Below are positions 2,439 to 58,418 of a DNA stretch of 64,000 nucleotides, piece after piece; positions within the stretch are counted from its first letter, which is position 1; each line of letters starts with the position of its first letter. Source of the DNA: Thermodesulfobacteriota bacterium (GTDB taxonomy: Bacteria; Desulfobacterota; Desulfarculia; JACQYL01); contig CAXXLZ010000001.1 in assembly GCA_963675595.2 (NCBI GenBank), positions 288,001 to 352,000 of the forward strand. Direction: 5' to 3'. The notes under the pieces are model-generated. The model was not told where the DNA came from. It searched no databases and saw nothing but the letters and a program-made list of their open reading frames with translations. The position numbers and the translations under genes are program-made.

Positions 2439-5285
2439 ATGGCATTATCCGTTGTTAACAATCTTGCATCTTTTTCCGCCCAGCAGGCCCTCACCAAGAG
2501 CACGTACCATCTTCAGAAGGCCCTGAATCATCTTTCCACCGGCTACCGCATCAACAGTGCGGCGGACGATCCCTCCGGCTTGGCCATTTCCGAGCGATTT
2601 CGCGGTCAGATTCGAGGCCTGGAGCGCGCCACGGCCAACGCCCTGGATGCTCAGTCCATGCTGCAGACCGCCGAAGGCTCGCTGGGGGAAACGCACGCCA
2701 TTCTTCAGCGCATGCGGGAACTGGCCGTTCAGGCGGCCAACGGCGTGCTCACCGGAAGCGACAGACAGGAACTGCAGCGCGAGGTGGATCAATTAAAGGA
2801 AGAAATCGACCGCATCGCCACGGCTACCGAGTTCAATACCAAGAAGCTTCTCGATGGATCCTCGGCCGCCCTGTGGAGCGCGGACGGATCGGATATCACC
2901 GCGATCATCCGAGGTCGCGTTGTGGAAGGAAACTACAAGCTGGTCAAGAACGCCGAGCCCCTGACCAATCATGTGTTGAAAACGGACATTTTTCGTTTGA
3001 AGGACGGAGCGATCTCACAAGAGGAGGAAGGGTCCGCCAACCAGTTGCGCTTCACCTTCGGTGGGGATGACGGTGAATTAACCGTGGCGGGCGGATCGAC
3101 CCTGAATTTCCGTTTCAACTTCGACGGTGTGAACAACATCGATATCGGGGTAACGGCGGGATCCGCGGACGGAAGCGGATTTACGGACGCCGAATACCTG
3201 GCGAGGGTGATCAACGCCAACTCGACCATCAGCCGATACGTCGAGGCCGAATTGGTTTCCGAAGGCGATATTGTTTTGCGGTCCAAAGAAGTCACGGAAA
3301 TCGGAGACAATTATACTCTGCAACTGGTCACCGCCGGGGGCGGGGCTTCCGCGGTGGCGGCGTGGCAGCCCAACATTACCAATTGGGGCGGAGATGAGTT
3401 GAGCTCGACCCAGACGAGCAACAACCTCTGGACTACCGCGGTACGATTCGCCGATTTCGATCTTGTTGTGGGGTCGACGGCATCGGGAACCATGGGAACC
3501 TTCGGCACGGACCGCGCGACGGCCGCCGAGAACAAAGTGATCCAATATGTGAGTAATGCGGCGGAGCTCGAGGGCGGCGACTACGAAATCACCACTGTGG
3601 CGGCGGATAACATCCCCAGCGGCCTGCAGGGTGCGGATGGTTTGAGCGTCGACGCCGGCTTGCTCATGGGCGCCTATATGAAGAGCTCTTCCACTGCGGA
3701 AGTCACCACGATTCAGGCCGCCGTGGACGCAAACCATTACGTGATCGTCGAGGTCACCGGGGCCGGCGGGAGCGGCGTGGTGGACCTCAAAGTCTCCTGG
3801 GATCAGGGCGCCACCTGGACCAACATCGGCAACTACCATGAGGGCGCGTCAATTAATAAGCTAGCCGGGGATCCGGATAACTGGTTCTCCTTGCAGTTCA
3901 ACGGCGATATGGCTACGGGGGACCGTTTGCTCATCGGATTGCAGAATGGAATCGCAGCGACCTCCAACGTGGCGCGGCTCACGGGTCCCGCCAACGAATG
4001 GACCAACATAGCGGATTCCGACGGTGGATGGGACCCGAGGGAGAACCTCGCCGGCGCGGACTTCCAGTATTTCAATCATGGGCTTTGGGAAGATTTGGGT
4101 GCCAACCCGGGAAGCAAAACCGATACTTTGACCTTTGCCCGCATGGACGAGGAAGGACGCGTAACCTTTGGCACGCTGGACGTCACCTGGGGCACCGATG
4201 CCAACTTCGAGAGCAGAAGTTCGAGCATCAACATTCTCCAAGGGGGAGACGTCGCCGGCTTGACCACGGAACTGTCCAAAATCGACCGGTTCTACGACGC
4301 CAATGGAAATTTTATTCTGGGCGATAACGGCAAGTGGATCGACATCTACACCGCCGCGGGAGATCAGGCTTCTTTTTATGTGGACGGCGGCGACACGGTA
4401 AAGGAGCTTGCCGATAAGATCGAGCAGATCATCAGCCTGGAGGCCACCTCTCAAAACTGGGAAGGCCTGGGATTGGGCACCGTACTGGATTCCGAAGGCG
4501 AGAATCATGTGGTGGACTTTGTTACCAACGCCACGGAGAACTCCGACGAAGCGGTCAAGGGAACCCTGCTCATTCGGTCGCCGAAACAAGGATTGAGCGG
4601 AATCCTTTACTTCAGCGCGGAAGAAGCCGTGCTCAACGCTCTGAGTCTGGCCACGATTAAGGACCCGTCCGAGGACGTGGACCCGTTGACGGTTGAGGTA
4701 TACGATGCGCACACGGGGGAATTGATCGGACAGGATACGGTAAGCGACAACGTGCTTCACGGCGTCATCCAGGGAGTTGATGTTCTGGTGGACGCCAATG
4801 TGGACATCAATTACTCCTGGAACGAAAACACCAAAGAAATCGACTTCTACAGCGCCACCGAAGACCAGATCGAATACCTGCACGTTGTGGACAACTCGGT
4901 GAATTTTCAGATCGGCGCCAACCCCGGGCAAATCATGGAAGCTCATATCTCACAGATGGATGCTTTGGGGCTCGGAATCGAAAACGTGCTGGTCGTGAAC
5001 CAAGCCACGGCAGTGGCCGCCTTGGACAGCATCGATGAGGCCATCCAACGGGTGTCTTCAGAACGCGCCCGACTGGGTGCCTATGTCAACCGACTCGATT
5101 TCACCATTTCGAACCTGGCCGTTCAGGAGGAGAATCAGATCGCAGCCGAGTCCCTGATTCGCGACCTCGACATGGCCATGGCCATCTCGGAGATGACCCA
5201 GTACCAGATTCTGCAGCAGGTGGGCGTTGCCATGTTGGCTCAGGCCAATGCCATGCCTCAGAGCCTCCTCAGCCTGCTCGGATAA
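2439..5285 (+). CDS. fliC: Flagellin 1 (948 aa, large variable domain)
   Basis: N-terminal LSTGYRINSAADDPSGLAISE...LQRMRELAVQAAN; C-terminal RARLGAYVNRL...IRDLDMA...MLAQAN. Confidence 0.97.
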   Translation: MALSVVNNLASFSAQQALTKSTYHLQKALNHLSTGYRINSAADDPSGLAISERFRGQIRGLERATANALDAQSMLQTAEGSLGETHAILQRMRELAVQAANGVLTGSDRQELQREVDQLKEEIDRIATATEFNTKKLLDGSSAALWSADGSDITAIIRGRVVEGNYKLVKNAEPLTNHVLKTDIFRLKDGAISQEEEGSANQLRFTFGGDDGELTVAGGSTLNFRFNFDGVNNIDIGVTAGSADGSGFTDAEYLARVINANSTISRYVEAELVSEGDIVLRSKEVTEIGDNYTLQLVTAGGGASAVAAWQPNITNWGGDELSSTQTSNNLWTTAVRFADFDLVVGSTASGTMGTFGTDRATAAENKVIQYVSNAAELEGGDYEITTVAADNIPSGLQGADGLSVDAGLLMGAYMKSSSTAEVTTIQAAVDANHYVIVEVTGAGGSGVVDLKVSWDQGATWTNIGNYHEGASINKLAGDPDNWFSLQFNGDMATGDRLLIGLQNGIAATSNVARLTGPANEWTNIADSDGGWDPRENLAGADFQYFNHGLWEDLGANPGSKTDTLTFARMDEEGRVTFGTLDVTWGTDANFESRSSSINILQGGDVAGLTTELSKIDRFYDANGNFILGDNGKWIDIYTAAGDQASFYVDGGDTVKELADKIEQIISLEATSQNWEGLGLGTVLDSEGENHVVDFVTNATENSDEAVKGTLLIRSPKQGLSGILYFSAEEAVLNALSLATIKDPSEDVDPLTVEVYDAHTGELIGQDTVSDNVLHGVIQGVDVLVDANVDINYSWNENTKEIDFYSATEDQIEYLHVVDNSVNFQIGANPGQIMEAHISQMDALGLGIENVLVVNQATAVAALDSIDEAIQRVSSERARLGAYVNRLDFTISNLAVQEENQIAAESLIRDLDMAMAISEMTQYQILQQVGVAMLAQANAMPQSLLSLLG

Positions 5286-6345: not shown

Positions 6346-9162
6346 ATGGCATTGACTGTTGTCAATAATATTGCTTCATTCGCTGCTCAGAAGGCCCTCA
6401 GTTCGAGTACCACTCACCTGCAGAACGCCCTGAACAGCCTTTCCACCGGCCTCCGCATCAACAGCGCGGCGGACGACCCGTCCGGACTGGCGATTTCCGA
6501 GCGGTTCCGCAGCCAGATTCGAGGCTTGGAACGCGCCACGTCCAACGCCTTGGACGCTCAGTCCATGCTGCAAACCGCGGAAGGCTCCCTCGGAGAAACC
6601 CACGCCATCCTGCAACGTATGCGCGAACTGGCGGTTCAAGCGGCCAACGGCGTGTTGACCGCAAGCGACCGGCAGGAAGTTCAGCGCGAAGTGGACCAGC
6701 TCAAAGAAGAAATCAACCGCATCGCCAACACCACCGAGTTCAACACCAAGAAACTGCTGGACGGTTCCTCCACGGCCCTTTGGAGCGCGAACAATTCCGA
6801 CATTGAAGCGGTCATTCGCGGAAAGGTGGCCGAAGGCAACTACAAGCTGGTGAAGAGTGCGGAGCCGCTGAGCAACCAGGTACTGAAGACGGATATCTTC
6901 CGGCTGAAAGACGGGGCCATCTCCCAGGCGGAAGAGGGTTCTCCGAACCAGATGCGGTTCACTTTCGGCGGATCGGATGCGACAATAGACGGAACCGGGG
7001 CGTCGACATTGACGTTCCGGTTCAACTTCGACGGCGTGAACAACATAGACGTATCGTTGAACTCGGCGTCGGGAGACGCCGCCCTCTTAACCGACGCGCG
7101 GTATTTGGTGGATGCCCTCAACGCCAACGCGACCATCAGCCAATACGTCGAAGTGGAGCTGGTGTCCAACTCGGACATTATCATTCGGTCCAAGGGGGTA
7201 ACGGACGAAAGCGACAATTATACCCTTCAGCTGGTGACCGGCGGAGGCGGTGCGTCGGCCGTGGCGGCGTGGCAGGCCAACATCACCAACTGGAGCGGAG
7301 ATGAGCTGAGTTCGACCCAGGCGACCAACAACCTCTTTACTTCCGCGGTCCGTTTCGCGGATTTCGATCAGATCGAAGGTCAGGTGAACTCGGGAGTGAC
7401 GGGCACCTTCGGAACGGACCGAACCACGGCCGCGCAGAACAAGGTGATCCAGTATGTGAGCAACGCCGAGAACCTCGAAGGGGGCGATTACGAAATCCTT
7501 ACCCTGTCGGCGAACGACTTTCCGAGCGGTACGGCGGGCGGAATCGGCGCTGTGGACTCCGCGTGGATTTTGGGCGCTCATCGACAAAGTTCGTCCACGG
7601 GAGAGATCGTGACCCTTACGGCGAGCGTTGACGAGAACCAGTACGTCATCGTCGAAGTGACCGGCGCAGGGGGCAGCGGCGTGGTGGACCTGAAGGTTTC
7701 CTGGGACCAGGGAGAAACCTGGACCAATGTTGGGAACTATCATGATGGGACTTCCATCAATAAGACTACCGGAGACCCGGCCAACTGGTTCTCCATGGAC
7801 TTGAACGGTGACTTGGCCACCGGCGACCGGTTCCTTTTCGGTCTGCAGGACCAATTGGATACGACCTCCAACTATGCCAGGCTGACGGGTCCCGCCAACG
7901 ATTGGTCGACCAGCTTGACCGCGGATCTGACGGAAGACTACGAGAACTTCAACCACGGGTTATGGCAGGACCTGGGAGCCAATCCGGGTGAGAAGACCCA
8001 TACCCTGACGCTTGCGAGCATGGACGAGGAAGGACGGGTGACCTTCGGCACCCTCGATGCCACCTGGGGAATGGATGACGATTTCGAGAGCCGAAGCTCG
8101 AACATCAAGATTCTCGAGGGCGGCGACGTTGCCGGTCTGACCACGGAGTTGTCCAAGATCGATCGATTCTACGACTCCAGCGGGAACTTCGTCCTGGGCG
8201 ACAGCGGCAAATGGATCGATGTCTACACCGCCGACGGAGACAACGCGTCGTTCTACGTGGACGGCGGTGATACGGTTCAGGAGCTTGCCGACAAGCTGGA
8301 ACAGATCATCAGCCTAACCTCGACTTCCCAAAACTGGGATGGTCTGGGGCTGGGCACGGTGCTGGACTCCGACGGCGAGAACCACGTGGTGGATTTCGTT
8401 ACCAACGCCACGGAGAACTCCGACGAAGCCGTCGAAGGAACCATGATCATTCGTTCGCCCAAACAAGGGGTCAACGGCTACCTCTATTTCAGTGCGGAGG
8501 AAGACCTGCTCAACGCCCTGAGTTTGGCCACCATCCAGGACCCCAAGGAAGACATCGATCCTCTCACGGTCACCGTATACAACGCCCACACGGGCGAGTT
8601 GATCGGCGAGGACACGGTGAGCGACAACGTCCTGCACGGAGTCATCCAGGGTGTGGACGTAATGGTGGACGCCAATGTGGACATCTCTTACTCCTGGAAC
8701 GATGATACTCGAGAGATCGACTTCTACAGTTCGGAAGGAGTGCAGGAAGAGTACCTCCACGTGGTGGACAATTCGGTGAACTTCCAGATCGGCGCCAACC
8801 CGGGCCAAGTGATGGAAGCCTACATCACACAGATGGATACCGTGGGATTGGGCGTTCAAAACGTTCTGGTGGTGAACCAGGAGACGGCCTCCGATGCCAT
8901 GTCCACCATCGACGACGCCATCCAAAGGGTGTCCTCGGAACGCGCCAGGCTGGGCGCTTACGTGAACCGTCTCGACTTTACCATCTCGAACCTGGCGGTT
9001 CAGGAGGAAAACCAGATCGCGGCGGAATCTTTGATCCGCGACCTGGATATGGCCAAGGCCATTTCCGAAATGACCCAGTACCAGGTGTTGCAGCAGGTGG
9101 GTGTGGCCATGCTGGCCCAGGCCAATACCTTGCCTCAGATGGTGCTGTCCCTACTCCGGTAA
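6346..9162 (+). CDS. fliC: Flagellin 2 (938 aa)
   Basis: Conserved flagellin N- and C-terminal helical domains; paralog of 2439-5285. Confidence 0.97.
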   Translation: MALTVVNNIASFAAQKALSSSTTHLQNALNSLSTGLRINSAADDPSGLAISERFRSQIRGLERATSNALDAQSMLQTAEGSLGETHAILQRMRELAVQAANGVLTASDRQEVQREVDQLKEEINRIANTTEFNTKKLLDGSSTALWSANNSDIEAVIRGKVAEGNYKLVKSAEPLSNQVLKTDIFRLKDGAISQAEEGSPNQMRFTFGGSDATIDGTGASTLTFRFNFDGVNNIDVSLNSASGDAALLTDARYLVDALNANATISQYVEVELVSNSDIIIRSKGVTDESDNYTLQLVTGGGGASAVAAWQANITNWSGDELSSTQATNNLFTSAVRFADFDQIEGQVNSGVTGTFGTDRTTAAQNKVIQYVSNAENLEGGDYEILTLSANDFPSGTAGGIGAVDSAWILGAHRQSSSTGEIVTLTASVDENQYVIVEVTGAGGSGVVDLKVSWDQGETWTNVGNYHDGTSINKTTGDPANWFSMDLNGDLATGDRFLFGLQDQLDTTSNYARLTGPANDWSTSLTADLTEDYENFNHGLWQDLGANPGEKTHTLTLASMDEEGRVTFGTLDATWGMDDDFESRSSNIKILEGGDVAGLTTELSKIDRFYDSSGNFVLGDSGKWIDVYTADGDNASFYVDGGDTVQELADKLEQIISLTSTSQNWDGLGLGTVLDSDGENHVVDFVTNATENSDEAVEGTMIIRSPKQGVNGYLYFSAEEDLLNALSLATIQDPKEDIDPLTVTVYNAHTGELIGEDTVSDNVLHGVIQGVDVMVDANVDISYSWNDDTREIDFYSSEGVQEEYLHVVDNSVNFQIGANPGQVMEAYITQMDTVGLGVQNVLVVNQETASDAMSTIDDAIQRVSSERARLGAYVNRLDFTISNLAVQEENQIAAESLIRDLDMAKAISEMTQYQVLQQVGVAMLAQANTLPQMVLSLLR

Positions 9163-10310: not shown

Positions 10311-13157
10311 ATGGCATTGACTGTTGTCAACAACATTGCTTCCTTTGCTGCTCAGAAGGCGCTCAGCTCGAGTACCACTCACCTGCAGAACGCCCTGAAC
10401 AGCCTTTCCACCGGCCTTCGCATCAACAGCGCGGCGGACGATCCGTCCGGACTGGCGATTTCCGAGCGGTTCCGCAGCCAGATTCGGGGCTTGGAACGCG
10501 CCACGTCCAACGCCTTGGACGCCCAGTCCATGCTGCAAACCGCGGAAGGTTCTCTCGGAGAAACCCACGCCATCCTGCAACGTATGCGCGAACTGGCGGT
10601 TCAGGCGGCCAACGGCGTGTTGACCGCAAGCGACCGGCAGGAAGTTCAGCGCGAAGTGGACCAGCTCAAGGAAGAGATCAACCGCATCGCCAACACCACC
10701 GAGTTCAACACCAAAAAGCTACTGGACGGCTCCTCCACGGCCCTCTGGAGCGCGAACAATTCCGACATTGAAGCGGTGATTACGGGAAAGGTGTCCGAAG
10801 GCAACTACAAACTGGTGAAGAGCGCCGAGCCGCTCAGTAACCATGTGTTGAAGACGGACATTTTCCGGCTGAAAGACGGAGCCATCTCGCAGGCCGAAGA
10901 GGGGTCCGCGAACCAGATGCGCCTCACTTTCGGTGGAGACGACGGAGAAGTGACCGTCGCAGGCGGATCGACCCTGAACTTCCGGTTCAACTTCGACGGT
11001 GTAAACAACATCGATATCGGAGTAACCGCAGGATCCGCCGACGGCACGGGCTTTACGGACGCTGAATATCTGGCGCGGGCCATCAACGCCCACTCGACCA
11101 TCAGCCAGTACGTGGAGGCGGAACTGGTGTCCGAGGGCGATATCATTATTCGCGCCAAGGATGTGACGGACGACAGCGACAACTACACGCTGCAAATGGT
11201 GACCGCCGGAGGCGGCGCGTCGGCCGTGGCGGCGTGGCAGCCCAACATCACCAATTGGGGCGGTGATGAACTTAGCTCGACCCAGACGAGCAATAACCTC
11301 TGGACTTCCGCGGTCCGTTTCGCGGATTTCGATCAGATCGAAGGTACGGTCAACTCGGGAGTCACGGGCACCTTCGGTACGGATCGGACCACCGCCGCCG
11401 AGAACAAGGTGATCCAGTACGTCAGCAACGCCGCCGATCTCGAAGCGGGCGACTATCAGATCACAACGGTGGCAACGGGCGACATCCCCAGCGGTTTGCA
11501 GAGTACGGACGGTCTGACCGTGGATCAGGGTCTGCTCATGGGCGCTTATCTCACGAGCACGTCCACGGCGGAAGTCACGACGATTCAGGCGGCCGTGGAT
11601 GAGAATCAGTACGTTATCGTCGAGGTGACGGGAGCCGGCGGCAGCGGCGCGGTGGACCTGAAGGTTTCCTGGGACCAGGGCGCCACATGGTCCAGTGTCG
11701 GGAACTACCACGAAGGAACCTCCATCAACAAGGTCGCCGGAGACCCGGACAACTGGTTCACGCTGGAATTCACCGGGGACATGGCGACCGGAGACCGCTT
11801 GCTTATCGGGCTCCAGAACGGGATTGCAGCGACTTCCAACGTGGCGAGGCTGACCGGTCCGGCCAACGAATGGACCAATGTAACGGATTCCGACGGAGAT
11901 TGGGACCCGAGGGAAAACCTGGCCGGGGCGGATTACCAAACCTTCAATCATGGGCTGTGGGAAGACCTGGGGGCCAATCCCGGTGAGAAGACCCATACCC
12001 TGACGTTTGCGAGCATGGACGATGAAGGGCGGGTGACCTTCGGCACCCTCGACGCCACCTGGGGCGCGGATGACGACTTCGAGAGCCGAAGCTCGAGCAT
12101 CAAGATTCTCGAGGGCGGCGACGTCGCCGGTCTGACCACGGAGTTGTCCAAGATCGATCGGTTCTACGACTCCAGCGGGAACTTCGTCCTGGGCGACAGC
12201 GGCAAATGGATCGATATCTACACCGCAGAAGGAGACAACGCGTCGTTCTATGTGGACGGCGGCGACACGGTGCAGGAGCTTGCCGACAAGCTGGAGCAGA
12301 TCATCAGTCTCACCTCGACTTCCCAGAACTGGGATGGTCTGGGGCTGGGCACGGTGCTGGACTCCGACGGCGAGAACCACGTGGTGGATTTCGTTACCAA
12401 CGCCACGGAGAACTCCGACGAAGCCGTCGAAGGAACCATGATCATTCGTTCGCCCAAACAAGGGGTCAACGGCTACCTCTATTTCAGTGCGGAGGAAGAC
12501 GTACTCAACGCCCTGAGTTTGGCCACCATCCAGGACCCCAAAGAAGACATCGATCCTCTCACGGTCACCGTATACAACGCCCACACGGGTGAGTTGATCG
12601 GTGAGGATACGGTGAGCGACAACGTCCTGCACGGAGTCATCCAGGGTGTGGACGTGATGGTGGACGCCAATGTGGACATCTCCTACTCCTGGAACGAGGA
12701 TACTCGAGAGATCGACTTCTTCAGTTCGGAAGGAGTGCAGGAAGAGTACCTCCACGTGGTGGACAATTCGGTGAACTTCCAGATCGGCGCCAACCCGGGC
12801 CAAGTGATGGAAGCCTATATCACACAGATGGACACCGTGGGATTGGGCGTTCAGAACGTTCTGGTGGTGAACCAGGCGACGGCCTCCGATGCCATGTCCA
12901 CCATCGACGACGCCATCCAGAAGGTGTCCTCGGAACGCGCCAGGCTCGGCGCCTACGTGAACCGTCTCGACTTCACCATCTCGAACCTGGCGGTTCAGGA
13001 GGAAAACCAGATCGCGGCGGAATCTTTGATCCGCGACCTGGATATGGCCAAGGCCATTTCCGAAATGACCCAGTATCAGGTGTTGCAGCAGGTGGGTGTG
13101 GCCATGCTGGCCCAGGCCAACACGTTGCCTCAGATGGTGCTGTCCTTACTCCGGTAA
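10311..13157 (+). CDS. fliC: Flagellin 3 (948 aa, mosaic of flagellins 1 and 2)
   Basis: Conserved flagellin termini almost identical to flagellin 2; central blocks resemble flagellin 1. Confidence 0.97.
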   Translation: MALTVVNNIASFAAQKALSSSTTHLQNALNSLSTGLRINSAADDPSGLAISERFRSQIRGLERATSNALDAQSMLQTAEGSLGETHAILQRMRELAVQAANGVLTASDRQEVQREVDQLKEEINRIANTTEFNTKKLLDGSSTALWSANNSDIEAVITGKVSEGNYKLVKSAEPLSNHVLKTDIFRLKDGAISQAEEGSANQMRLTFGGDDGEVTVAGGSTLNFRFNFDGVNNIDIGVTAGSADGTGFTDAEYLARAINAHSTISQYVEAELVSEGDIIIRAKDVTDDSDNYTLQMVTAGGGASAVAAWQPNITNWGGDELSSTQTSNNLWTSAVRFADFDQIEGTVNSGVTGTFGTDRTTAAENKVIQYVSNAADLEAGDYQITTVATGDIPSGLQSTDGLTVDQGLLMGAYLTSTSTAEVTTIQAAVDENQYVIVEVTGAGGSGAVDLKVSWDQGATWSSVGNYHEGTSINKVAGDPDNWFTLEFTGDMATGDRLLIGLQNGIAATSNVARLTGPANEWTNVTDSDGDWDPRENLAGADYQTFNHGLWEDLGANPGEKTHTLTFASMDDEGRVTFGTLDATWGADDDFESRSSSIKILEGGDVAGLTTELSKIDRFYDSSGNFVLGDSGKWIDIYTAEGDNASFYVDGGDTVQELADKLEQIISLTSTSQNWDGLGLGTVLDSDGENHVVDFVTNATENSDEAVEGTMIIRSPKQGVNGYLYFSAEEDVLNALSLATIQDPKEDIDPLTVTVYNAHTGELIGEDTVSDNVLHGVIQGVDVMVDANVDISYSWNEDTREIDFFSSEGVQEEYLHVVDNSVNFQIGANPGQVMEAYITQMDTVGLGVQNVLVVNQATASDAMSTIDDAIQKVSSERARLGAYVNRLDFTISNLAVQEENQIAAESLIRDLDMAKAISEMTQYQVLQQVGVAMLAQANTLPQMVLSLLR

Positions 13158-13247: not shown

Positions 13248-13661
13248 ATGGTAGAACTGGGACTGCTTGAGATATCCCGACAAACCGTGGCCGCCTCAGA
13301 TAATGAGATGCGAGGGAAGCCGGCCGCGGAGAGGCGGATAGACCACACGGCGGCGCTCCAACTCCTCCCTGAAGATCGGGTGGACAAGCCGACGAGGCCG
13401 AATCCCACTAAACCCGGCTCGGTTTCGGGCAAAGACGCGGATGTCGAGAAGACGGAAGAGAATCAGGAAGTGGTGGAACTGATGCCCCCTGGGCGTGTCG
13501 GTTTTGAGTACAAGGTCGACAAAGAATTGGGGCGGGTTTCGCTCAAGGTTTATGACAAAGAAACGGGAGAAACCATCCGGGAGGTACCGCCGGAGGAGCT
13601 TACGGAGGTTGCCAAGAAGATGAAGAAAATGGCCGGAATTCTTTTCGAGAAGAAGGTGTAG
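13248..13661 (+). CDS. flaG: Flagellar protein FlaG
   Basis: C-terminal motif VYDKETGETIREVPPEE...GILFEKKV; located directly after a flagellin. Confidence 0.9.
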   Translation: MVELGLLEISRQTVAASDNEMRGKPAAERRIDHTAALQLLPEDRVDKPTRPNPTKPGSVSGKDADVEKTEENQEVVELMPPGRVGFEYKVDKELGRVSLKVYDKETGETIREVPPEELTEVAKKMKKMAGILFEKKV

Positions 13662-13974
13662 CAGAGCTGATTTCCACCCATCTCGTGTGGGAGGACGCTT
13701 GATCGCTTCCCGGCAAGTTCGAAAAGACATGGGGAGCGTAAAGGGTGTGGTATGTCCTGAGAAGCGAATGTTTCCCTCCGCCCTTGTATCTCATCTCTCG
13801 CCGTGCTTCGAAGGTCCCGAAGTACTCTCCGGCTTCGGGGCTTCTATTCCGATGCTGCGGTCCGGCGCCTCTTCTTGGCCTCGCTCCCAATCCCCAACCG
13901 CTTGTCACCCGTTGTGGTTTCGCCTACAATACGATTCCTTTGGCAAATCCAGACGAGGAAGGAATCTATTGGTC

Positions 13975-14451
13975 ATGACTTGGAAGCGTAAGGTAATGCG
14001 TCTCTTTTACTTGGGCGCGGTGGTTTGTCTGGTTGGAACGCTGGCTGTTTCCTCGGCCGCCGCGGCGAAAGTCCGGTGGGAGTCCTATGACGAAGGGATC
14101 GCTCGAGGAAAGAAGGAGCAGAAGAAGATACTGGTGAAGTTTCACGCGGATTGGTGCACTTACTGCAAAGAGATGGAGCGGACCACCTTTTCCGATCCGG
14201 AAATCGTGGCCTACATCAATCGCTATTTTGTTCCCGTGTCCGTGGATACGGATAAACAGAAGGGGCTTGCCGTCAGGTACCGGGTGAACAGTCTTCCGGC
14301 TTCCTGGTTCTTGGATTATAAAGGTGAGCAGATCCTTCCCGTGCCGGGATATGTACCCCCAAAAATGTATCTTTATTTCCTGGAATGGATTGCGGAGGAC
14401 GGGTACAAGGATACGTCCCTGAAGGACTTTCTGAAGAATAAGAAGGAATGA
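13975..14451 (+). CDS. Exported thioredoxin-family protein (SoxW/DsbD-gamma-like)
   Basis: Signal peptide, FHADWCTYCKEM CxxC motif, cis-Pro SLP; start reassigned from 13687. Confidence 0.85.
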   Translation: MTWKRKVMRLFYLGAVVCLVGTLAVSSAAAAKVRWESYDEGIARGKKEQKKILVKFHADWCTYCKEMERTTFSDPEIVAYINRYFVPVSVDTDKQKGLAVRYRVNSLPASWFLDYKGEQILPVPGYVPPKMYLYFLEWIAEDGYKDTSLKDFLKNKKE

Positions 14452-14527: not shown

Positions 14528-15268
14528 TCAGAGCTTATTCACGAACCATTCGGGTGCCACGCTTTGCAGGTAGCTGTTGATGGTCGCCAGGCTGTCCGTG
14601 AAGATCAACAGACCCACCAGAACCAACAATATCCCGGCGAAGAGGTTGAATACCGGGAGCCACCGTTTGATTCGGCTGAGCAGTGGAAGAAAATGACCCA
14701 CCGCCAGGGACGCGAGAAAGAACGGGACCGCCATTCCGAGGGAATAAGTGGTCAGCAGGATGATTCCCTGGGTTGCATTCTGATGGGTCCCCGCAACCAT
14801 TAGAATCGACCCGAGAATGGGCCCCACGCACGGAGTCCAGCCCACCGCGAAAGTGATTCCCACCAACGTCGTTCCCAAATAGCCGGCAGGCTTGTGCCGC
14901 AAGTGAACCGAGAATTCCTTCATCAGAAAAGGAAGCTGAAACTTGTATGAGAGGGCGATGAGCAGGCCGAAGAGGATGATCAATATCCCCCCGACCTTTC
15001 GGATGATATCCCCGTAGTCGAAAAAGAAACTCCCGAGGGTGCTGAAAGAGAAGCCCAGCGCCACAAAAGCGATCGAAAAACCGAGGATGAAGAAAAGGGA
15101 GTGGATGATCACCCGTCTACGGTATACGGGCTGGTCCTCAATGGCGATCTGATCGTAGCTGAGGCCGGTAATAAAGCTCAAATAGGAAGGGAACAACGGA
15201 AGGGTGCAGGGGGACAGAAAGGTCAACACCCCGGCGGTGAAAGCGATAAGGATGGTCACATCGGCCAA
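14528..15268 (-). CDS. ccdA: Cytochrome c biogenesis / transmembrane electron transporter CcdA
   Basis: FLSPCTLPL and GWTPCVGPILG motifs; about six TM helices. Confidence 0.92.
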   Translation of the reverse strand: MADVTILIAFTAGVLTFLSPCTLPLFPSYLSFITGLSYDQIAIEDQPVYRRRVIIHSLFFILGFSIAFVALGFSFSTLGSFFFDYGDIIRKVGGILIILFGLLIALSYKFQLPFLMKEFSVHLRHKPAGYLGTTLVGITFAVGWTPCVGPILGSILMVAGTHQNATQGIILLTTYSLGMAVPFFLASLAVGHFLPLLSRIKRWLPVFNLFAGILLVLVGLLIFTDSLATINSYLQSVAPEWFVNKL

Positions 15269-15350: not shown

Positions 15351-15509
15351 TCATGAGTTGTCCTCTTCTCCCATATCGTCCCGCTTTTTCGAGTCACCGA
15401 CCCGACACGAGGACCGCATTCACGTATCCACCCCCAGTCCGGGAAGCACCACCGCTTGCAGCAGCACCCATAAGCCGACGACGATCAGAAAAATCCAAAC
15501 TTCGTTCAT
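15351..15509 (-). CDS. Predicted small membrane selenoprotein (52 aa, Sec30), not in the ORF track
   Basis: GGAG SD; MNEVWIFLIVVGLWVLLQAVVLPGLGVDT-UGA-MRSSCRVGDSKKRDDMGEEDNS; SECIS-like hairpin after the UGA. Confidence 0.6.
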
Positions 15510-15539
15510 TGTATTCTCCAACGCCCGGTTGGAGCCTGC

Positions 15540-15761
15540 TCAACCTCAGGAAAAGGGTGAAGACGACGGTCCGCAACTCGAACGGGCTGATGAGGCAACG
15601 CTCCCGTTTAGAGGACCGGAGCAGGTCGCAAAGGCGGATAGGAGTCTCTTTGGGTTGGATGCTCCACACTTGGGGCATTTGACCTCTGCAACCTTTCCCA
15701 AGGAGACGATTTCTTCAAAGTGGTGTGAGCATTGGTCGCAACAAAACTCGTACAACGGCAT
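15540..15761 (-). CDS. FmdB-family zinc-ribbon protein, probable C-terminal Sec-Gly
   Basis: MPLYEFCCDQC...CPKCG...; ends SPFS-TGA-GGT-TGA followed by hairpin CTCCAAC-CGGGC-GTTGGAG. Confidence 0.8.
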
Positions 15762-15925
15762 ACGTTTTTTCCTCCGGCGCACTGTACGCTCCTTCCAGGA
15801 GCGTCGTATGAGTTCAATTCACTGTTAAACATTTTCCAGTTTTTTTCAAGGAGCATATCCCTCCCGGACCGGGAGCCGTTCCTTCGGCCGCTCCGGAGAC
15901 TCCGTTTCAGCGGCTTCAGGTTTCA

Positions 15926-16141
15926 TCAGCCTCACCCGCAACAGGATCTTTTAACGGCTGGACTAGGCGATCCTTCCCGGCCTTGTTCGGCACTTGTTCG
16001 TTTCTTGACGTCGCATCCCGAACGGCCCGTATTCCGGCTTCCGCAATGGGGGCATTTCTCTTTTCGCAGCCTCCACCCTCTCGCGACAGCCGAAAATACG
16101 CTCTCACAGTCCCCACACACGAATGTTACAGGCGCTTTCAT
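15926..16141 (-). CDS. Second zinc-ribbon protein, possible C-terminal Sec-Gly
   Basis: CGDC...CPHCGS; ends RSCCG-TGA-GGC-TGA; AGGAGG SD. Confidence 0.65.
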
Positions 16142-16194: not shown

Positions 16195-16986
16195 TTACAC
16201 GTTTCTATGGATAGGAGTGAAGAAAACCTTTTCCGAAGGCTTCGCGTCCAGAAACCCGGCGACGGGACTCAGGTCGGCCAAGCGACGGGTAAGGTTGGGC
16301 CAAAACCCCTCTCCACCCAAGTGGAGCCACCCGCCGATGTGGACGAGAACACCGCCTGATGCGGCCTTTGTCCGAGCCCAAAGACGCCGGATTTTACGCT
16401 CCATGGTATCGGTCCTTCGATTCCATTCCACCGACGTATCGCCATCCATAAGAATCAGCTCCCAAGGCGCAGACTTTCCGTGAAAGCGGACGGCCACTTG
16501 CTTTCTGAGGTTTTCGAAACTCTCGGATGGGTGACGGGGCGCGAGTCTAAGCATGGCCTCGAGATTGGGCATCGAGATCAGTTCTTCGAGAAATGGGAGC
16601 TTGTTTTTTGAGGATTCCGAGTCGTCCGTGCAAACCACCGTTGTAGACCTGGAATGGGCGTAGTCCCGGCTCGCGCTGAACTCGAAAGGCAGGGCGATCT
16701 GGTTCCTGATGTTCCGAAATGGCTCGAGCTGGAGGATGGACTCGATCTCAAGGTTTCTTTTTTTTGCCAGAAGACGCAGCCGCTCATCGAGGAGTTGCAG
16801 TTGTCTACGGGCGTGCTTCATTCGGAAACGGACTGCATAGGGACTGGTTTCGACACTGACGATCGTGGGACCGATGCGGTCGAGCATTCGCTTAAGCAGT
16901 TCTTCCCCTCTCGGGTCCCTGTGGATCGTACCAAGAAGGAAAAGACGGGCTTCCGGAACGGCTGTGGAGTCCGCCGAAGGGCTCAA
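16195..16986 (-). CDS. Hypothetical protein (TraB/EreA-like fold possible)
   Basis: LLGTIHRD...VSVE...VHIGGWLH; start overlaps the HDOD gene stop. Confidence 0.7.
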   Translation of the reverse strand: MSPSADSTAVPEARLFLLGTIHRDPRGEELLKRMLDRIGPTIVSVETSPYAVRFRMKHARRQLQLLDERLRLLAKKRNLEIESILQLEPFRNIRNQIALPFEFSASRDYAHSRSTTVVCTDDSESSKNKLPFLEELISMPNLEAMLRLAPRHPSESFENLRKQVAVRFHGKSAPWELILMDGDTSVEWNRRTDTMERKIRRLWARTKAASGGVLVHIGGWLHLGGEGFWPNLTRRLADLSPVAGFLDAKPSEKVFFTPIHRNV

Positions 16987-17825
16987 GTCTTCAGGAGGAA
17001 GGGCGTTCGTTTGAGCTCTCGCTTCAGTTCGGCGAGGCTGCGATCCATGACGTCCTCCGTCAATCCCGCAATTTCCAGAACGTCGCGAAACTCACGGAAG
17101 CTCCAATTATCCACGCCGAGTCCGATGCCGGCCAGCTTGCAGCATCGGTCGGCGAGATAGATCAGGGCCGTGATGGGGTGCCCTTTCCGAACTTCCTCAA
17201 TGGTGTGGTGAGTGCGTATGGGTTCACTGATGCTTGACGGGAGCTGCCATTTATCGGCCACCTCTCCCCCCACGGCGGCGTGGTCGATACCGATGATCTC
17301 TCGTTCCGCTTCCACGAAAGTGTAATTCTCTTCAGTAACCAAGTGCATAATTTCCCGAAATCGGTCTTGGACAAAAGAGTTCAGAACGACCTTGCCGATG
17401 TCGTGCAGCAGGCCGGCGGTGAAGAGGGCCGAGGGGTCCGCCTCAGGATTGGAAGCACCCAGAATTTGCGCCAGGAGGGCGCAGGAAACGGAGTGACGCC
17501 ACATCTCCCGAGCCGCCATTCCGTACCCGGGAACATCGGTGGTGTAGTAACTTAGAGACCCTCCGATGACGGCCAGCTCGATCACCTCCTGTGGGCCCAG
17601 AAGCTGAACGGCGCGCCGAAGAGAGCTGATTTCCTCCTGAAAGCCGAAATATCCCGAGTTACATAGCCGCAGCACCGTGGCTGTGATGTTTTGGTCGTAC
17701 TTGATCACATCCACAATCTCTCCCGGAGGAGCGTTCCGGCTCCGCATCAGATCGAAGGCTCTGTGAACCGTCGCCGGAAAAGGAGGAAGACTTTTGATGG
17801 AATAGAGTATTTTCTGACCCACCAT
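16983..17825 (-). CDS. HDOD domain protein
   Basis: LPPFP, DQNITATVLRLCNS, WRHS, GLLHDIGK, DHAAVG...WQLP. Confidence 0.93.
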   Translation of the reverse strand: MVGQKILYSIKSLPPFPATVHRAFDLMRSRNAPPGEIVDVIKYDQNITATVLRLCNSGYFGFQEEISSLRRAVQLLGPQEVIELAVIGGSLSYYTTDVPGYGMAAREMWRHSVSCALLAQILGASNPEADPSALFTAGLLHDIGKVVLNSFVQDRFREIMHLVTEENYTFVEAEREIIGIDHAAVGGEVADKWQLPSSISEPIRTHHTIEEVRKGHPITALIYLADRCCKLAGIGLGVDNWSFREFRDVLEIAGLTEDVMDRSLAELKRELKRTPFLLKT

Positions 17826-40801: not shown

Positions 40802-42186
40802 CATAAGCGCTAACTTAAGCATTGTTTGCTATGCTTCTTTCCGTCTGAGGAATCAGCCGCTGAAGTGCTCGTTTCCTTGGCGGTTCTCGCAAATAAAAAG
40901 ATATGTTATCCCAGCCGGCAATGCATTCGGCCAAGCCGAGTTTAGGGTTCACGGCTTGTTTCAGCAGGTGTAACATAAACATGGTCTCTCTCCAGAAGCA
41001 TCGATTTCTACGGTGGTTCTTTTTGGAGTGGGTATCCCCAGGGAAAAAAAGATTCGCCTGCGGCGATCATGGCCTCCACTAAGAAAGCCACCAGTAGTTT
41101 CCCATGGATCCAGGCCTTGGCTCCTTCGATGTCGGTCTTTCTAAGATGGCCTAAACCGAGAATGGACTTTAGACGCTTGAAAGCGAGTTCAATTTGCCAT
41201 CGACCTCGGTACATCTCGAGGACCTGAGAGGGCGAGATTTCACGGCCCAATGTTGTGAAAACAAATATGTAGGCCGCCGCTTCGAGGGTGTCCGGAGTAA
41301 CTTGGCGACCTTTTTTCCTCGCCTCTTTTTCTATCGCTTTACGAGCTTTTTCAGTGGCGTCTTTGCTCTTCTTGATGGCACAGATTCTACCTGCAACCAA
41401 GCGTTGTTCAAATGGAACGAATGCATCCCAGTCGCCAAGCTTATTTACACGTAACGTCCTTAGATGAGGGAGTAATTGGAATCGTTCCCCTTGCTTGTCC
41501 ACCATGGCGACACGGTGTTTCATTCGAACCAGGACGTCGCCGCCGTTGTCTATGACATGGTGAATTCCTCTTGGTGTGCAATAGGCTCTATCCGCTACAA
41601 GAAGTTCACCGCCATGGACTTTGAAATTGGTGAAGGATTCTCCGATCTTGGGGTCTGTTACATAGACTTCGTCGCAGCGCAGCGAAGGCAATTGTATGGA
41701 ATAATGGACCCTCCAAGTCGTTCCGGTACTTCCAGGTTCTTGAATGGTGGAGGCATCGATCAACCTGATGCGTGAATTCTCTCCAAAAACAACGGCGGGC
41801 AGCTTTCGAAACCATTTCTCCATGACCCCTAAGGCCATCCACCGAAACCACTCTCCGCATTTATTCAGTCGTTTTAGGAGAGCTACGTCGGAAATCGACG
41901 TAATGTTGCCGAACCTGGCTTTGGCCGCCGTCAGCCGAAGTGAGCAACCTTCCGCCAGATGGATCAGAAGCGTTCGCAACAGACCTTCGGCGTCCACGAA
42001 CTTACGGTATCTGACAACGGCACCAAGTTCCCTTGCTTTGGATTGCCAGCCATCGGGAAGAAAACCCTGGAGAACTTCCCAGTCTTCCATTTCCTCGGAA
42101 AAAACGAGACGCTCCATTGCCACCTCCTTTGGCGGCAACGGTACCATAAACCTCACCAAAACAAAAGGCTTAAGTTAGCGCTTATG
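40802..42186 (-). mobile_element. IS4-family insertion sequence
   Basis: Perfect 19-bp TIR CATAAGCGCTAACTTAAGC; 11-bp TSD CCCTTTAGGGG at 40791-40801 and 42187-42197. Confidence 0.95.
41008..42117 (-). CDS. IS4 family DDE transposase
   Basis: IDAST, ADRAY, YRGRWQIELAFKRLK (Y-2-R-3-E-6-K signature). Confidence 0.93.
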   Translation of the reverse strand: MERLVFSEEMEDWEVLQGFLPDGWQSKARELGAVVRYRKFVDAEGLLRTLLIHLAEGCSLRLTAAKARFGNITSISDVALLKRLNKCGEWFRWMALGVMEKWFRKLPAVVFGENSRIRLIDASTIQEPGSTGTTWRVHYSIQLPSLRCDEVYVTDPKIGESFTNFKVHGGELLVADRAYCTPRGIHHVIDNGGDVLVRMKHRVAMVDKQGERFQLLPHLRTLRVNKLGDWDAFVPFEQRLVAGRICAIKKSKDATEKARKAIEKEARKKGRQVTPDTLEAAAYIFVFTTLGREISPSQVLEMYRGRWQIELAFKRLKSILGLGHLRKTDIEGAKAWIHGKLLVAFLVEAMIAAGESFFPWGYPLQKEPP

Positions 42187-49377: not shown

Positions 49378-51253
49378 GATGAGTTCGTAAAAACCTCTCC
49401 GTAAAGGTATCTAGTTGAAAATATGAATAAAAATGGCATTTATGGGTTGACCTTTCTTTTGGGTCCTGTATGATAAGTATCTGACTTGATTAATAATATG
49501 GTCCTTAGGGGGGTTGTTTTGTTTCGGCCTAAGAGAACGCAAAAGACCATTTTCGACCACGATATTTGCCTTCCCGCAGACAGGATCGAGGCGTTGGAGA
49601 AGACGTGGGCCGGTCCGTTCCGGCGCCTGGTGCTTCCCATGATCGATGAGGAGTCTTTCCGGCCTTTCTACTGTGAGGACAACGGCAGGCCCAACAGACC
49701 CGTGGCCATCCTTGTCGGAGCGTGTGTTTTGAAGGAAATGAACAGCCTGACCGATGCGGAAGTCTTGGGCGCTCTGGACTTCGATCTGCGTTGGCAATAT
49801 GCCTTCAACATCAACGCCTTTGAATCTCACGTCTGCCAGAAGACCCTGCACAATTTCCGGACCTTGATTACCGACAACAAGCAAGCGCGGAGCCTCTTTA
49901 CCGGAATCACGGACGCCATCATCGAGACGGCGGCCCTTAGCACGGACAAACAGCGGTTGGACTCCACACAGATCACTTCCAACATGGCTCATCTGAGCCG
50001 TCTGGGGCTCTTTACGCGCACCATCGAGGCGTTCTTGAAACGGCTCCATAAGAAACATCCCAAGTTGTATGAGAAACTGCCCCGACTTTACGACAAGGCC
50101 TACTTGAAGCGCGCAGGCTATTTTGCCGATGCAAAATCATCGCGGGCCAAGCGTCGTCTGGACAAGTCCGCCCGCCATCTCGCCGACCTGGTGGACCGCT
50201 TCCGAGGTCATCCGGAAATCAGCCGAATGAAAGAATACCGGCTGATGGCCCGACTACTGTCGGAGCAATGCCGTTTCACCGAGGGAGATCCCGACAAAAC
50301 AGAACTCGAGAAGCCCAAGGAAATCCCTGCGGACTCCCTGCAGAATCCTTCGGATCCCGACGCCACCTATGGGCGCAAGGGCAAAGGATATAAGGCTTCC
50401 CTCACGGAGACCTGCGTGAAGGAAAATCCCTTCCAGGTGATCACCGATGTGGACGTGGCCCCTTCCTATGACAGCGACCAGAAAGACGTGATGCCCGTTA
50501 TCGAACGCCTGGAGGAAACGGGCCGCAAACCCGAAGAGTTGTTCGCCGACGCAGGCTACGGCAGCGGCGAGAACATCCTTCAAGCTCACGAGCACGGAGT
50601 CGAGCTTACCGCTCCGGTGACTTGCGGAAAAGCGCCGGATCTCAATAAGATGCAGTTGAGTGACTTTGAAACGAACGAGGACTGCACCCAGGTCGTTTAC
50701 TGTATCCGGGGGCACGCGCCACTTGAATGCAAGATCGTTGACCGCGGCAAAGCGGTGGAAGCCGTGTTTTCCCGCGAGCACTGTCTCCTATGCGAATTTC
50801 TCCCCATCTGTCCGGTAAAACGGATCAAGGGCGGAAATTATCGACTGAAGTACAAGCGCAAGGACATGGCGACCTCCAAGCGCAGACTACAGCAGGAAAG
50901 CCATGATTTCAAAGAACGCTACAAAATCCGGTCCGGCATCGAGGCCACCATCTCCGAAGCGGATCGGGTCACGGGATTGAAACGATCGTGGACCCGAGGC
51001 AAAAAACGGGTCACCTTATCTGTTTTCATGAAGGCCCTGGCCATCAACATCAAGAGGTTCGTCCAGAGCCGCCTTGATAAGGCCAAGAAGGCCCTTTCCA
51101 ACTCGATAGAGGGAGGCAGCAACGATAATTTCCGTCGTCTTTGTAGCCTATGTCACGATGACAGTAACCTTGGCAGTGTTGCAATGGCCGCTTGAACTTC
51201 CAATGCTCCAAAAAACAGCCCTGTTCGTAAAGGGGGGTTCTTACGACGGCATC
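49378..51253 (+). mobile_element. IS1182/IS5-like insertion sequence
   Basis: Imperfect TIR GATGAGTTCGTAAAAAC / GTTCTTACGACGGCATC around a DDE transposase. Confidence 0.75.
49486..51195 (+). CDS. IS1182-like DDE transposase
   Basis: NGRP, RLDST, DPDAT...GYK, ADAGYGS, CxxCxxxxxC insertion, YKIRSGIEAT; exact start uncertain. Confidence 0.9.
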   Translation: MINNMVLRGVVLFRPKRTQKTIFDHDICLPADRIEALEKTWAGPFRRLVLPMIDEESFRPFYCEDNGRPNRPVAILVGACVLKEMNSLTDAEVLGALDFDLRWQYAFNINAFESHVCQKTLHNFRTLITDNKQARSLFTGITDAIIETAALSTDKQRLDSTQITSNMAHLSRLGLFTRTIEAFLKRLHKKHPKLYEKLPRLYDKAYLKRAGYFADAKSSRAKRRLDKSARHLADLVDRFRGHPEISRMKEYRLMARLLSEQCRFTEGDPDKTELEKPKEIPADSLQNPSDPDATYGRKGKGYKASLTETCVKENPFQVITDVDVAPSYDSDQKDVMPVIERLEETGRKPEELFADAGYGSGENILQAHEHGVELTAPVTCGKAPDLNKMQLSDFETNEDCTQVVYCIRGHAPLECKIVDRGKAVEAVFSREHCLLCEFLPICPVKRIKGGNYRLKYKRKDMATSKRRLQQESHDFKERYKIRSGIEATISEADRVTGLKRSWTRGKKRVTLSVFMKALAINIKRFVQSRLDKAKKALSNSIEGGSNDNFRRLCSLCHDDSNLGSVAMAA

Positions 51254-54887: not shown

Positions 54888-55025
54888 GTTGGTCGACTCC
54901 GGGACCCGATAGGGTGTAAGCGTGAGGGAGAGAGGTTTGTATTCATTTGCCGGGGGAAATACCATGTTGGCCTCAGGTGCTCGATCGTTATGATGGAGCA
55001 TCACCCAAACAGAAAGGAGACCAAC

Positions 55026-56119: not shown

Positions 56120-56330
56120 TTAGGACTTGTTTAGGAGAACCCAACCGGCTCGGGACCCATACTTGAGGTGGGTCCCGAGCCTCAAGCCGGGAGAAAAAAG
56201 CGGAGACGGCCGCGATAAAGTTTGGCTGCATCGGTAGCGCTGGGGAAATGGCGGCATCTTCGCTTCTACATCGCATGTGTACTTGGCGCTTCGGGCGCGA
56301 ATAGGAAACGGTTATCCAATTCCGGCTTGA
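56120..56330 (+). ncRNA. Downstream guide RNA (seekRNA/bridge RNA) of the IS1111-type element
   Basis: Structured non-coding end with target-matching (TAAAGTTT, GGGGAAA) and donor-matching (ATAGGAAA, CATGTGTACTT) segments. Confidence 0.7.
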
Positions 56331-56356
56331 CTTGAGGCCACATAGGAAACTTTCGA

Positions 56357-58415: not shown

Positions 58416-58418
58416 GGT

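Follow-up and report, generated by a model that had tools for sequence, protein, structure and literature searches.

Probable selenoprotein genes upstream of ccdA in a Thermodesulfobacteriota genome: an FmdB-family zinc ribbon with a penultimate UGA and its small neighbours

Does an in-frame UGA at or near the end of a small bacterial gene stop translation, or does it encode selenocysteine (Sec)? The question is raised by 64 kb of a Thermodesulfobacteriota bacterium genome (contig CAXXLZ010000001.1, positions 288,001 to 352,000; the whole of this stretch is called the window), in which three small open reading frames (ORF1, ORF2 and ORF3) with in-frame TGA codons follow one another on the minus strand upstream of ccdA (Table 1). 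A preliminary description of this DNA had proposed that they are selenoprotein genes, and the arrangement it gave was confirmed by the coordinates and translations. ORF coordinates and Pfam matches also bore out that ccdA is co-oriented with the three ORFs and that an ORF for an exported-type CxxC thioredoxin converges on it. We conclude, with a probability of about 0.8, that two and probably three of these ORFs are genuine selenoprotein genes whose products are truncated by standard gene calling: ORF2, a zinc ribbon of the FmdB family; ORF3, a membrane peptide; and, with less assurance, ORF1, a divergent zinc ribbon.

The terminal UGA of FmdB-family genes

ORF2 scored above the curated cut-offs of both TIGR02605 (56.1 bits, cut-off 31.3) and Pfam PF09723, Zn_ribbon_8 (52.5 bits, cut-off 34.4). 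We take the hallmark of FmdB proteins to be two CxxC motifs 17 residues apart that begin near the initiator Met, and ORF2 has this layout (C8-x2-C11 ... C29-x2-C32, numbering from MPLYEF). Protein searches revealed a tail common to its relatives, ...S-C-[G/A/S]-x(3-6)-G-F-[S/T], and all five close matches sharing this tail stopped at the residue where ORF2 meets TGA. In a library of 1.84 billion proteins, 82 of the 150 best representatives at 50% identity had an F-[S/T] end, and a 69%-identical relative is annotated at NCBI as a 70-residue zinc-ribbon protein ending ...PFS. A tail that ends at the ORF2 UGA may be either the true C-terminus or a systematic truncation, and the DNA of the relatives was therefore compared.

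Genome contigs were scanned with MPLYE[YF][CR]C, an N-terminal pattern that takes no account of the stop codon. Of 406 confirmed loci the best 80 were used, and the stop could be read in 79, as the L065 gene reaches the end of its contig first; the set spans loci from Thermodesulfobacteriota, Acidobacteriota, Chloroflexota, Myxococcales and Spirochaetota. When the loci were chosen by their tail alone, 26 ended in F-[S/T/R] and shared the tail type of ORF2, ...C-x(4-9)-G-F-S/T. The first stop was TGA in 25 of these and a second in-frame stop lay one or two codons further on in 24, compared with TGA in 27 and a second stop within one or two codons in 5 (Fisher p = 2.8e-13) of the remaining 53 loci. 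The extensions after TGA in the tailed loci were A, G, R, AS, AN, GA, GI, GS and NT, and the two exceptions were L060, which stops at TAG, and L046, where TGA is followed by a 109-codon extension. Twelve of the 53 other loci had TGA followed by at most five codons, and their tails again carried Cys shortly before the TGA (CCxGTxT, CxPSGGG, RCYG, CWSGG); a single locus with TGA and a short extension, L049, was put down to chance. In the 41 loci outside the pattern the stops were TAA (17), TGA (15) and TAG (9), with the next in-frame stop 1 to 702 codons away.

The set referred to below as Sec-type contains 36 genes (35 loci and the window), in which the first stop is TGA by definition. Their second stops were TGA in 15, TAG in 11 and TAA in 10. 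A conserved TGA followed by mixed second stops is the signature of a recoded UGA and then an ordinary stop. The C-terminal U-Gly-stop architecture that the preliminary description had claimed is real, and it recurs across the ORF2 family as U-[G/A]-stop or U-x-x-stop; homologues with TAA or TAG at the UGA position, which would have spoken against it, were confined to one of the tailed relatives. On these comparisons we consider it highly probable that the UGA of ORF2 encodes Sec.

The same description had argued that two neighbouring genes would hardly end in UGA-Gly-stop by chance. The sequence TGAGGNTGA occurs only twice on the two strands of the window, both times at the ends of ORF1 and ORF2. 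This count is ordinary, as about 2.3 copies are expected at any place and in any frame; the placement is unusual, both copies being in-frame ends of two adjacent zinc-ribbon ORFs. With a chance of about 0.001 per TGA (2.3 per 1950 TGA triplets), the value for a given pair is about 1e-6. Of 44 long ORFs in the window, 24 end in TGA, which makes it the commonest ordinary stop and indicates that there is no general reassignment of this codon.

The AlphaFold2 model of ORF2 had a confidence score (pLDDT) of 82-91 over residues 1-40, fell below 50 over residues 47-62 and reached 54-61 in the tail. Such a confident ribbon with a disordered linker fits a mobile arm that would carry a Cys-x9-Sec pair. 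A PDB sequence search returned generic zinc fingers and RpoP only.

Hairpins after the UGA codons, and the evidence for ORF3 and ORF1

The bacterial selenocysteine insertion sequence (bSECIS) model, as given in the accessible part of its source, has a loop of 3-9 nucleotides (nt) starting G[G/U], a stem of 4-16 base pairs (bp), a spacing of 16-37 nt and an energy of -7.5 kcal/mol or lower (PMC13188914). A hairpin whose loop is N-G-[G/U], with at least 5 bp in the stem and the loop beginning 14-39 nt away from the U of UGA, was present in 34 of 37 FmdB genes with TGA and a short extension versus 2 of 42 other FmdB genes; the same hairpin followed 6.8% of 6715 TGA triplets, all in the same FmdB loci. 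The distance from UGA to loop was 15-22 nt in 35 of the 36 Sec-type genes and 28 nt in the other (L066), and the loops read CGU[G/U]N, CGG[G/C/U]N or [C]GGUC[G/C]. The hairpins are no intrinsic terminators, as a U-run was absent after all 36. The stems vary in sequence while the pairing is kept, all seven pairs changing on both sides. Paired cells amounted to 86.6% against 53.3% in shuffles, a statistic that favours structure in a set chosen for pairing, so that the fair test is the comparison of 34 of 37 with 2 of 42. These features of the family hairpin match the published model.

The stem of the ORF2 hairpin starts 11 nt and its loop 18 nt after the UGA, which places it beyond the true stop. 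A covariance model of the hairpin was built from 34 other ORF2-type loci, the window being excluded, and was used for rank and position only. It ranked the ORF2 hairpin second of 17 matches in the window (17.2 bits); the top match, 17463-17487 (+), lies on the strand opposite ORF1-3. In our own implementation of the published bSECIS criteria all three UGAs passed (-10.5 kcal/mol for ORF2; the other two values are in Table 1), as did 81 of 600 random TGAs of the window (13.5%; 4.8% at -12 kcal/mol or lower).

The 3' arm of the ORF2 hairpin overlaps the Shine-Dalgarno sequence of ORF3 (GUUGGAG-AAUACA-AUG in the window), and a similar overlap just after the FmdB stop was seen in the Desulfobacterales loci L001, L002, L005 and L006. 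This suggests that translation of ORF3 may be coupled to ribosomes finishing ORF2.

ORF3 matched no Pfam or NCBIfam model. Its first 29 residues read as one hydrophobic helix, after which come the TGA and 22 further sense codons before the next stop. In L001, L002, L003 and L005 an ORF3-type gene comes directly after the FmdB gene, and in L076 it precedes that gene. The motif of the type is W..L...[I/V]LPK[L/F]G.[S/D/E]T-U-[L/M]xxxC, and the TGA stands at the same position in the five loci and the window. In the alignment of the six sequences T29, U30 and C35 (the Cys at +5) were invariant, and the relatives were 30-54% identical to the ORF3 of the window. The covariance model, trained on ORF2-type hairpins, matched the site after the ORF3 UGA in the window (15385-15409, 11.5 bits, twelfth of the 17 matches) and the equivalent site in L001, L002 and L003, which make up three of its seven non-training matches in the five loci (35,170 bases, both strands). 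A comparable hairpin was seen by eye after the ORF3-type UGA of L005 and L076. A profile search yielded 41 database homologues of ORF3, and the 22 that were read all end at ...T, the residue before the UGA. Sec coding in ORF3 thus appears probable from its sequence relatives, and the charged K and R after the helix suggest that a Sec-x4-Cys motif would face the cytoplasm.

ORF1 remained below the cut-offs (24.6 bits for Zn_ribbon_8, cut-off 34.4; 18.9 bits for TIGR02605, cut-off 31.3) and is therefore FmdB-like only. It has a CxxC-x17-CxxC layout (C9-x2-C12 ... C30-x2-C33) with AGGAGG ahead of its ATG, and it follows the logic of the family: a zinc ribbon, a Cys before the UGA (C-C-G-U, that is CxxU), one Gly codon and two stops. 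Its C-C-G-U tail resembles the C-Y-G-U tail of L052. No ORF1-like zinc ribbon was found upstream of eight related FmdB genes whose translations were read. We lean towards Sec coding in ORF1 as well. The proposal that all three ORFs are selenoprotein genes has consequently gained support for ORF2 and ORF3, from conserved UGAs and bSECIS-like hairpins in relatives, whereas ORF1 fits the pattern without homologues.

Proposed function, rival readings and gene neighbourhood

What is observed is a conserved UGA, ordinary second stops and a bSECIS-type hairpin, and from these we infer Sec insertion itself. In ORF2, residues 1-44 would fold as a zinc ribbon, followed by a disordered linker of Ser and Gly and then by the conserved tail Cys-x9-Sec-Gly; a SelB-type hairpin located in the 3' untranslated region would assist in decoding its UGA, after which Sec and Gly would be added and translation would end at the second stop. 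ORF3 would present T-Sec-x4-Cys straight after its helix, probably on the cytoplasmic side, with the bSECIS inside the reading frame, and ORF1 would be a divergent zinc ribbon ending Cys-Cys-Gly-Sec-Gly, probably decoded in the same way. Each Cys...Sec pair may form a redox-active selenenylsulfide, or a chalcogen or metal site, on a flexible arm. ORF2 and ORF3, which are adjacent in six loci, may for that reason cooperate, and in this lineage they may be co-transcribed with ccdA. Our preferred guess is a selenenylsulfide/selenolthiol centre acting on a partner, ORF3 being its membrane-bound counterpart in Desulfobacterota; metal or chalcogen binding by the tail is the main alternative.

A different reading of the same codons is that the UGAs are ordinary stops, with the tandem stops serving as fail-safe and the hairpins as terminators or as regulators of the ribosome-binding site of the next gene. 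Several results weigh against Sec coding. Stop codons are unseen for the homologues known as proteins alone, and all database entries examined end at the UGA, in a window where TGA is in any case the commonest stop. The overlap of the ORF2 hairpin with the ORF3 Shine-Dalgarno sequence would suit a regulatory role. Single-sequence folding after the three UGAs was no better than in shuffles (z = -0.30, -0.12 and -0.69), and the hairpin was revealed by comparative analysis only; the covariance model is short, with E-values in the window (0.48 and 8.2) that are not significant alone. This model missed the ORF1 hairpin, whose loop lies farther from the UGA than the 15-22 nt of the family, and the search for ORF1 homologues gave one candidate and none that was significant. 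Conservation of the ORF3 peptide after the UGA is no separate proof of coding because it overlaps the hairpin. Cys forms exist for most selenoprotein families, and the preliminary description had looked to homologues with Cys at the UGA. None was found: an F-[S/T]-C extension of ORF2 was absent from the 150 best representatives, the 14 first matches and the 79 loci, and a Cys form of ORF3 was absent from the 22 homologues read of the 41 found. Finally, the 64-kb window holds no selA, selB, selD or tRNA-Sec (no tRNAs, no Rfam matches and no Sel domains in the scanned ORFs). On the other hand, ordinary termination leaves unexplained why TGA and a second stop within two codons prevail in the 26 tailed relatives (25 and 24, respectively) and such a second stop is found in 5 of the 53 others, and why the second stops use all three codons when the first are TGA only, in a set selected for TGA. 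The lack of U-runs speaks against terminators, and even hairpins without a downstream gene keep the loop motif and the distance of 15-22 nt. Gene callers end any selenoprotein entry at its UGA, so that entries ending there are to be expected of any selenoprotein. We regard ordinary termination as very improbable and retain Sec coding as the preferred reading.

If these are selenoproteins, their function may still be construed in other ways. In the pathway of the preliminary description, CcdA and then the exported thioredoxin would receive reducing equivalents from the cytoplasmic Sec zinc ribbons and the Sec peptide in the membrane. ORF1, ORF2, ORF3 and ccdA do follow one another on the minus strand, separated by 165, 30 and 83 nt, and nothing resembling a terminator lies on that strand from ORF1 to ccdA; each of the three small proteins would hold a Cys...Sec pair, ccdA and the thioredoxin gene together resemble a split DsbD, and the order ORF2-ORF3-ccdA recurs in L003, the closest relative. 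L003 also shares, however, the upstream HDOD gene and a gene for a 260-residue protein, and its ccdA synteny is general co-linearity with a close relative. Among the six loci that hold the ORF2/ORF3 pair, ccdA adjoins it in the window and L003 only; L001, L002, L005 and L076 have no DsbD_TM gene within 2.5 kb of the pair among ORFs of at least 70 residues. Clustering of 250 ORFs yielded no neighbour that is conserved throughout the 35 Sec-type loci and the window, and the ORF3 motif was found in 5 of the 80 FmdB loci, leaving most Sec-type FmdB genes without an ORF3 partner. The relay to CcdA and the periplasmic thioredoxin was thus not borne out, nor was conserved synteny with ccdA, and we hold a dedicated relay of this kind to be improbable. 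A hitherto undescribed selenium relay of ORF2 and ORF3 on the cytoplasmic membrane face, feeding CcdA with reducing power, a chalcogen or a metal independently of thioredoxin in this lineage, seems improbable too; if true, it would be the first mechanism for the ubiquitous, function-less FmdB family. The Cys/Sec tail might instead bind or carry Cu, Hg, As, persulfide or selenide rather than electrons. The four-Cys zinc ribbon domain is in keeping with this, as is a CsoR-type gene directly 3' of the FmdB gene in L014 and L018, and the available portions of two sources list Cys/Sec selenoproteins that handle metals, namely MerT-like proteins, HgcA/B and MbdU (PMC13188914; 10.1101/2022.07.06.499078). 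The CsoR neighbour is, however, restricted to 2 of 35 loci, and genes for metal transport or resistance are not conserved in the vicinity; we consider this function rather unlikely.

Other genes were noted around the FmdB genes and in the window. CsoR-type proteins are metal- or persulfide-sensing repressors, and the two loci in which they were found belong to Chloroflexota. In five Desulfobacterales-type loci a gene for a small membrane protein with a DnaJ domain and DUF1232 is divergent from the FmdB-Sec gene (Table 1). Between the HDOD gene and the selenoprotein genes lies the ORF of 260 residues (16195-16986, minus strand, in the window; 2904-3683, plus strand, in L003), which is kept in the closest relative and had no Pfam or NCBIfam match. 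The thioredoxin-like ORF has a hydrophobic, signal-like stretch ahead of its domain, and its listed start is probably too far upstream; its best NCBIfam matches were TsoB and DsbD C-terminal regions, below cut-off.

Three very large flagellin genes occupy 2439-5285, 6346-9162 and 10311-13157 on the plus strand (948, 938 and 948 residues). Only their ends match Flagellin_N and Flagellin_C, the centres of about 700 residues having no Pfam match at the thresholds used; a FlaG gene follows at 13248-13661 (+). An ORF at 53751-56012 (-) resembles a cysteine desulfurase of the TIGR01977/selenocysteine-lyase type from residue 377 on only, with 368.6 bits for TIGR01977 (cut-off 377) and 269.7 bits for the SclA model (cut-off 525). 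A SelD gene beside this NifS-like gene (53.7-56 kb) was considered and rejected: there was no SelD match, and the upstream part overlaps a transposase-like ORF on the opposite strand. This plus-strand ORF, of 516 residues, has by eye the look of an IS110-type transposase. Close to the desulfurase gene, 58053-61085 (-) encodes a xanthine-dehydrogenase-type molybdenum hydroxylase with 2Fe-2S domains (888 residues) and then a TusE/DsrC-family sulfur-relay protein. Near-identical ORF translations about 750 nt apart (56312-56593 and 56903-57346; 56477-57145 and 57230-57778) reveal a direct repeat. Two DDE transposase genes, 41008-42159 (-) and 49486-51195 (+) (PF01609; PF13751, DUF772), flank a block of two-component sensor genes.

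Table 1. Coordinates of the ORFs, hairpins and neighbouring genes (positions are those of the window unless a locus is named)
Feature	Location	Strand	Remarks
ORF1, zinc ribbon, 69 residues + putative Sec-Gly	15929..16141	-	ends ...SCCG-U-G; 16141..15932 up to and including the first TGA; S-C-C-G, TGA (15934-15932), GGC, TGA (15928-15926), TGA (15925-15923)
ORF2, FmdB-family zinc ribbon, 71 residues + predicted Sec-Gly	15543..15761	-	ends ...SSC-GPSSSPFS-U-G; likely ATG at 15761 with GGAGG ahead; S-P-F-S, TGA (15548-15546), GGT, TGA (15542-15540, true stop)
ORF3, single-pass membrane peptide, 52 residues, predicted internal Sec	15354..15509	-	...LPGLGVDT-U-MRSSC-RVGD...; likely ATG at 15509; TGA 15422-15420; stop TGA 15353-15351
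ccdA, DsbD-type transmembrane thiol-disulfide transporter	14528..15268	-	Pfam DsbD_TM 6.8e-20; 83 nt 3' of ORF3
Thioredoxin-like protein, WCTYC	13687..14451	+	Pfam Thioredoxin_2 8.9e-17, residues 142-229; converges on ccdA
ORF1 candidate bSECIS	15887..15914	-	GCCGCU-GAAA-CGGA-[GUC]-UCCG-G-AGCGGC; loop 31 nt after UGA; -13.1 kcal/mol
ORF2 predicted bSECIS	15516..15534	-	CUCCAAC-[CGGGC]-GUUGGAG; in 3' untranslated region
ORF3 predicted bSECIS	15389..15405	-	UCGGGUC-[GGU]-GACUCGA; inside coding region; loop 21 nt after UGA; -12.4 kcal/mol
DnaJ/DUF1232 gene	L001 3214-3636, L002 3477-3896, L005 3484-3894	-	Pfam confirmed
DnaJ/DUF1232 gene	L006 148-570, L008 3033-3455	-	BLAST clustering only
CsoR-type repressor directly 3' of Sec-type FmdB gene	L014 4134-4505, L018 4229-4522	+	PF02583 2.6e-25, 7.4e-25

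Relation to known selenoproteins

Few small proteins without known function are as common in bacteria as the FmdB zinc ribbons. If a large branch of them ends Cys...Sec-[Gly/Ala], public entries miss the probable active residue; the branch concerned is that of the 82 F-[S/T]-ended proteins among the 150 representatives, with loci in the five groups named above. Selenoproteome counts would then be too low for these phyla, and the catalogue of 119 would gain two families. The absence of Cys forms would be unusual, the hairpin in the 3' untranslated region would be a natural model of how bacteria decode a C-terminal Sec, and the conserved pairing with a membrane Sec peptide would offer a handle on function.

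Selenoproteins of the FmdB family have been predicted before, from marine metagenome reads, with a CxxU/UxxU motif and 807 Cys homologues according to the passage available (PMC2398784); the entry under TIGR02605 in the accessible part of a 2026 catalogue reads "UxxU, 2 Sec" (PMC13188914), and a further passage on catalogued FmdB selenoproteins is found in PMC9312934. The statement in the preliminary description that such proteins had been predicted in deltaproteobacteria does not agree with these passages, which concern marine metagenome reads and another Sec position (PMC2398784; PMC13188914). "FmdB" in PMC11227280 is formylmethanofuran dehydrogenase, which is irrelevant to the ORF2 family. 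The marine proteins belong to the same domain family as ORF2 and are likewise small, with a predicted Sec and no known function. They differ in that the knuckles of ORF1 and ORF2 are all Cys, Sec would be penultimate in the tail and forms with Cys were not found, the marine Sec position being that given in the text of the source.

Neither NCBIfam nor Pfam has a selenoprotein model that covers ORF1-3, and the accessible part of the 2026 catalogue table does not contain them (PMC13188914). The NCBIfam selenoprotein models NF041197, UXX-star, KCU-star, TsoA/C/X/Y and SaoC gave no match at E <= 10 to ORF1-3 or to the ORF3-type peptides of L001 and L076. No description of an FmdB protein with C-terminal Sec or of the ORF3 peptide was found in the literature searched, whose scope was that outside subscription journals, supplements and figures. 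We rate as new one Sec-position subfamily of FmdB proteins and one family of small membrane selenoproteins.

A C-terminal Sec is known in the KCU-star, UXX-star and SaoC families, as far as the available portions of the sources describe them (PMC13188914; 10.1101/2022.07.06.499078). There, as proposed here, Sec lies 0-2 residues from the true stop and entries are truncated at the UGA; with Sec so placed, the decoding hairpin falls wholly or mostly beyond the ORF. They are, however, different protein families, and their NCBIfam models also failed to match four relatives at E <= 10. The proteins of NF041197 (CxxC_Se_CxxC; OS_HP3, "hypothetical protein DW") are small and have two CxxC motifs and one Sec, like ORF1 and ORF2, but the motifs in the accessible part of the catalogue are RxU/GxU (PMC13188914) and not the C-terminal Sec predicted here. 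Apart from the lack of a match to ORF1 and ORF2, this model gave only 17.3 bits for L039 (cut-off 40).

Selenoprotein genes side by side, as probably here, are described for the Tso ("three selenoprotein operon") and SAO operons in the parts of the sources available. TsoB, a rhodanese/DsbD-fusion selenoprotein, is the best NCBIfam match of both the CcdA (56.1 bits) and the thioredoxin (66.8 bits) of the window, far from its cut-off of 805. The two window proteins carry Cys and not Sec, and the TsoA, TsoC, TsoX and TsoY models miss ORF1-3.

Animal thioredoxin reductase carries a C-terminal Gly-Cys-Sec-Gly arm. ORF1 and ORF2 have no flavoprotein or oxidoreductase domain, the partner Cys is 9 residues away in ORF2 and part of C-C-G-U in ORF1, and decoding would be of the bacterial kind. 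By analogy, the likeness to thioredoxin reductase is one of mechanism only: a Sec-Gly-stop end on a flexible tail with a partner Cys, which suggests a mobile selenenylsulfide/selenolthiol centre.

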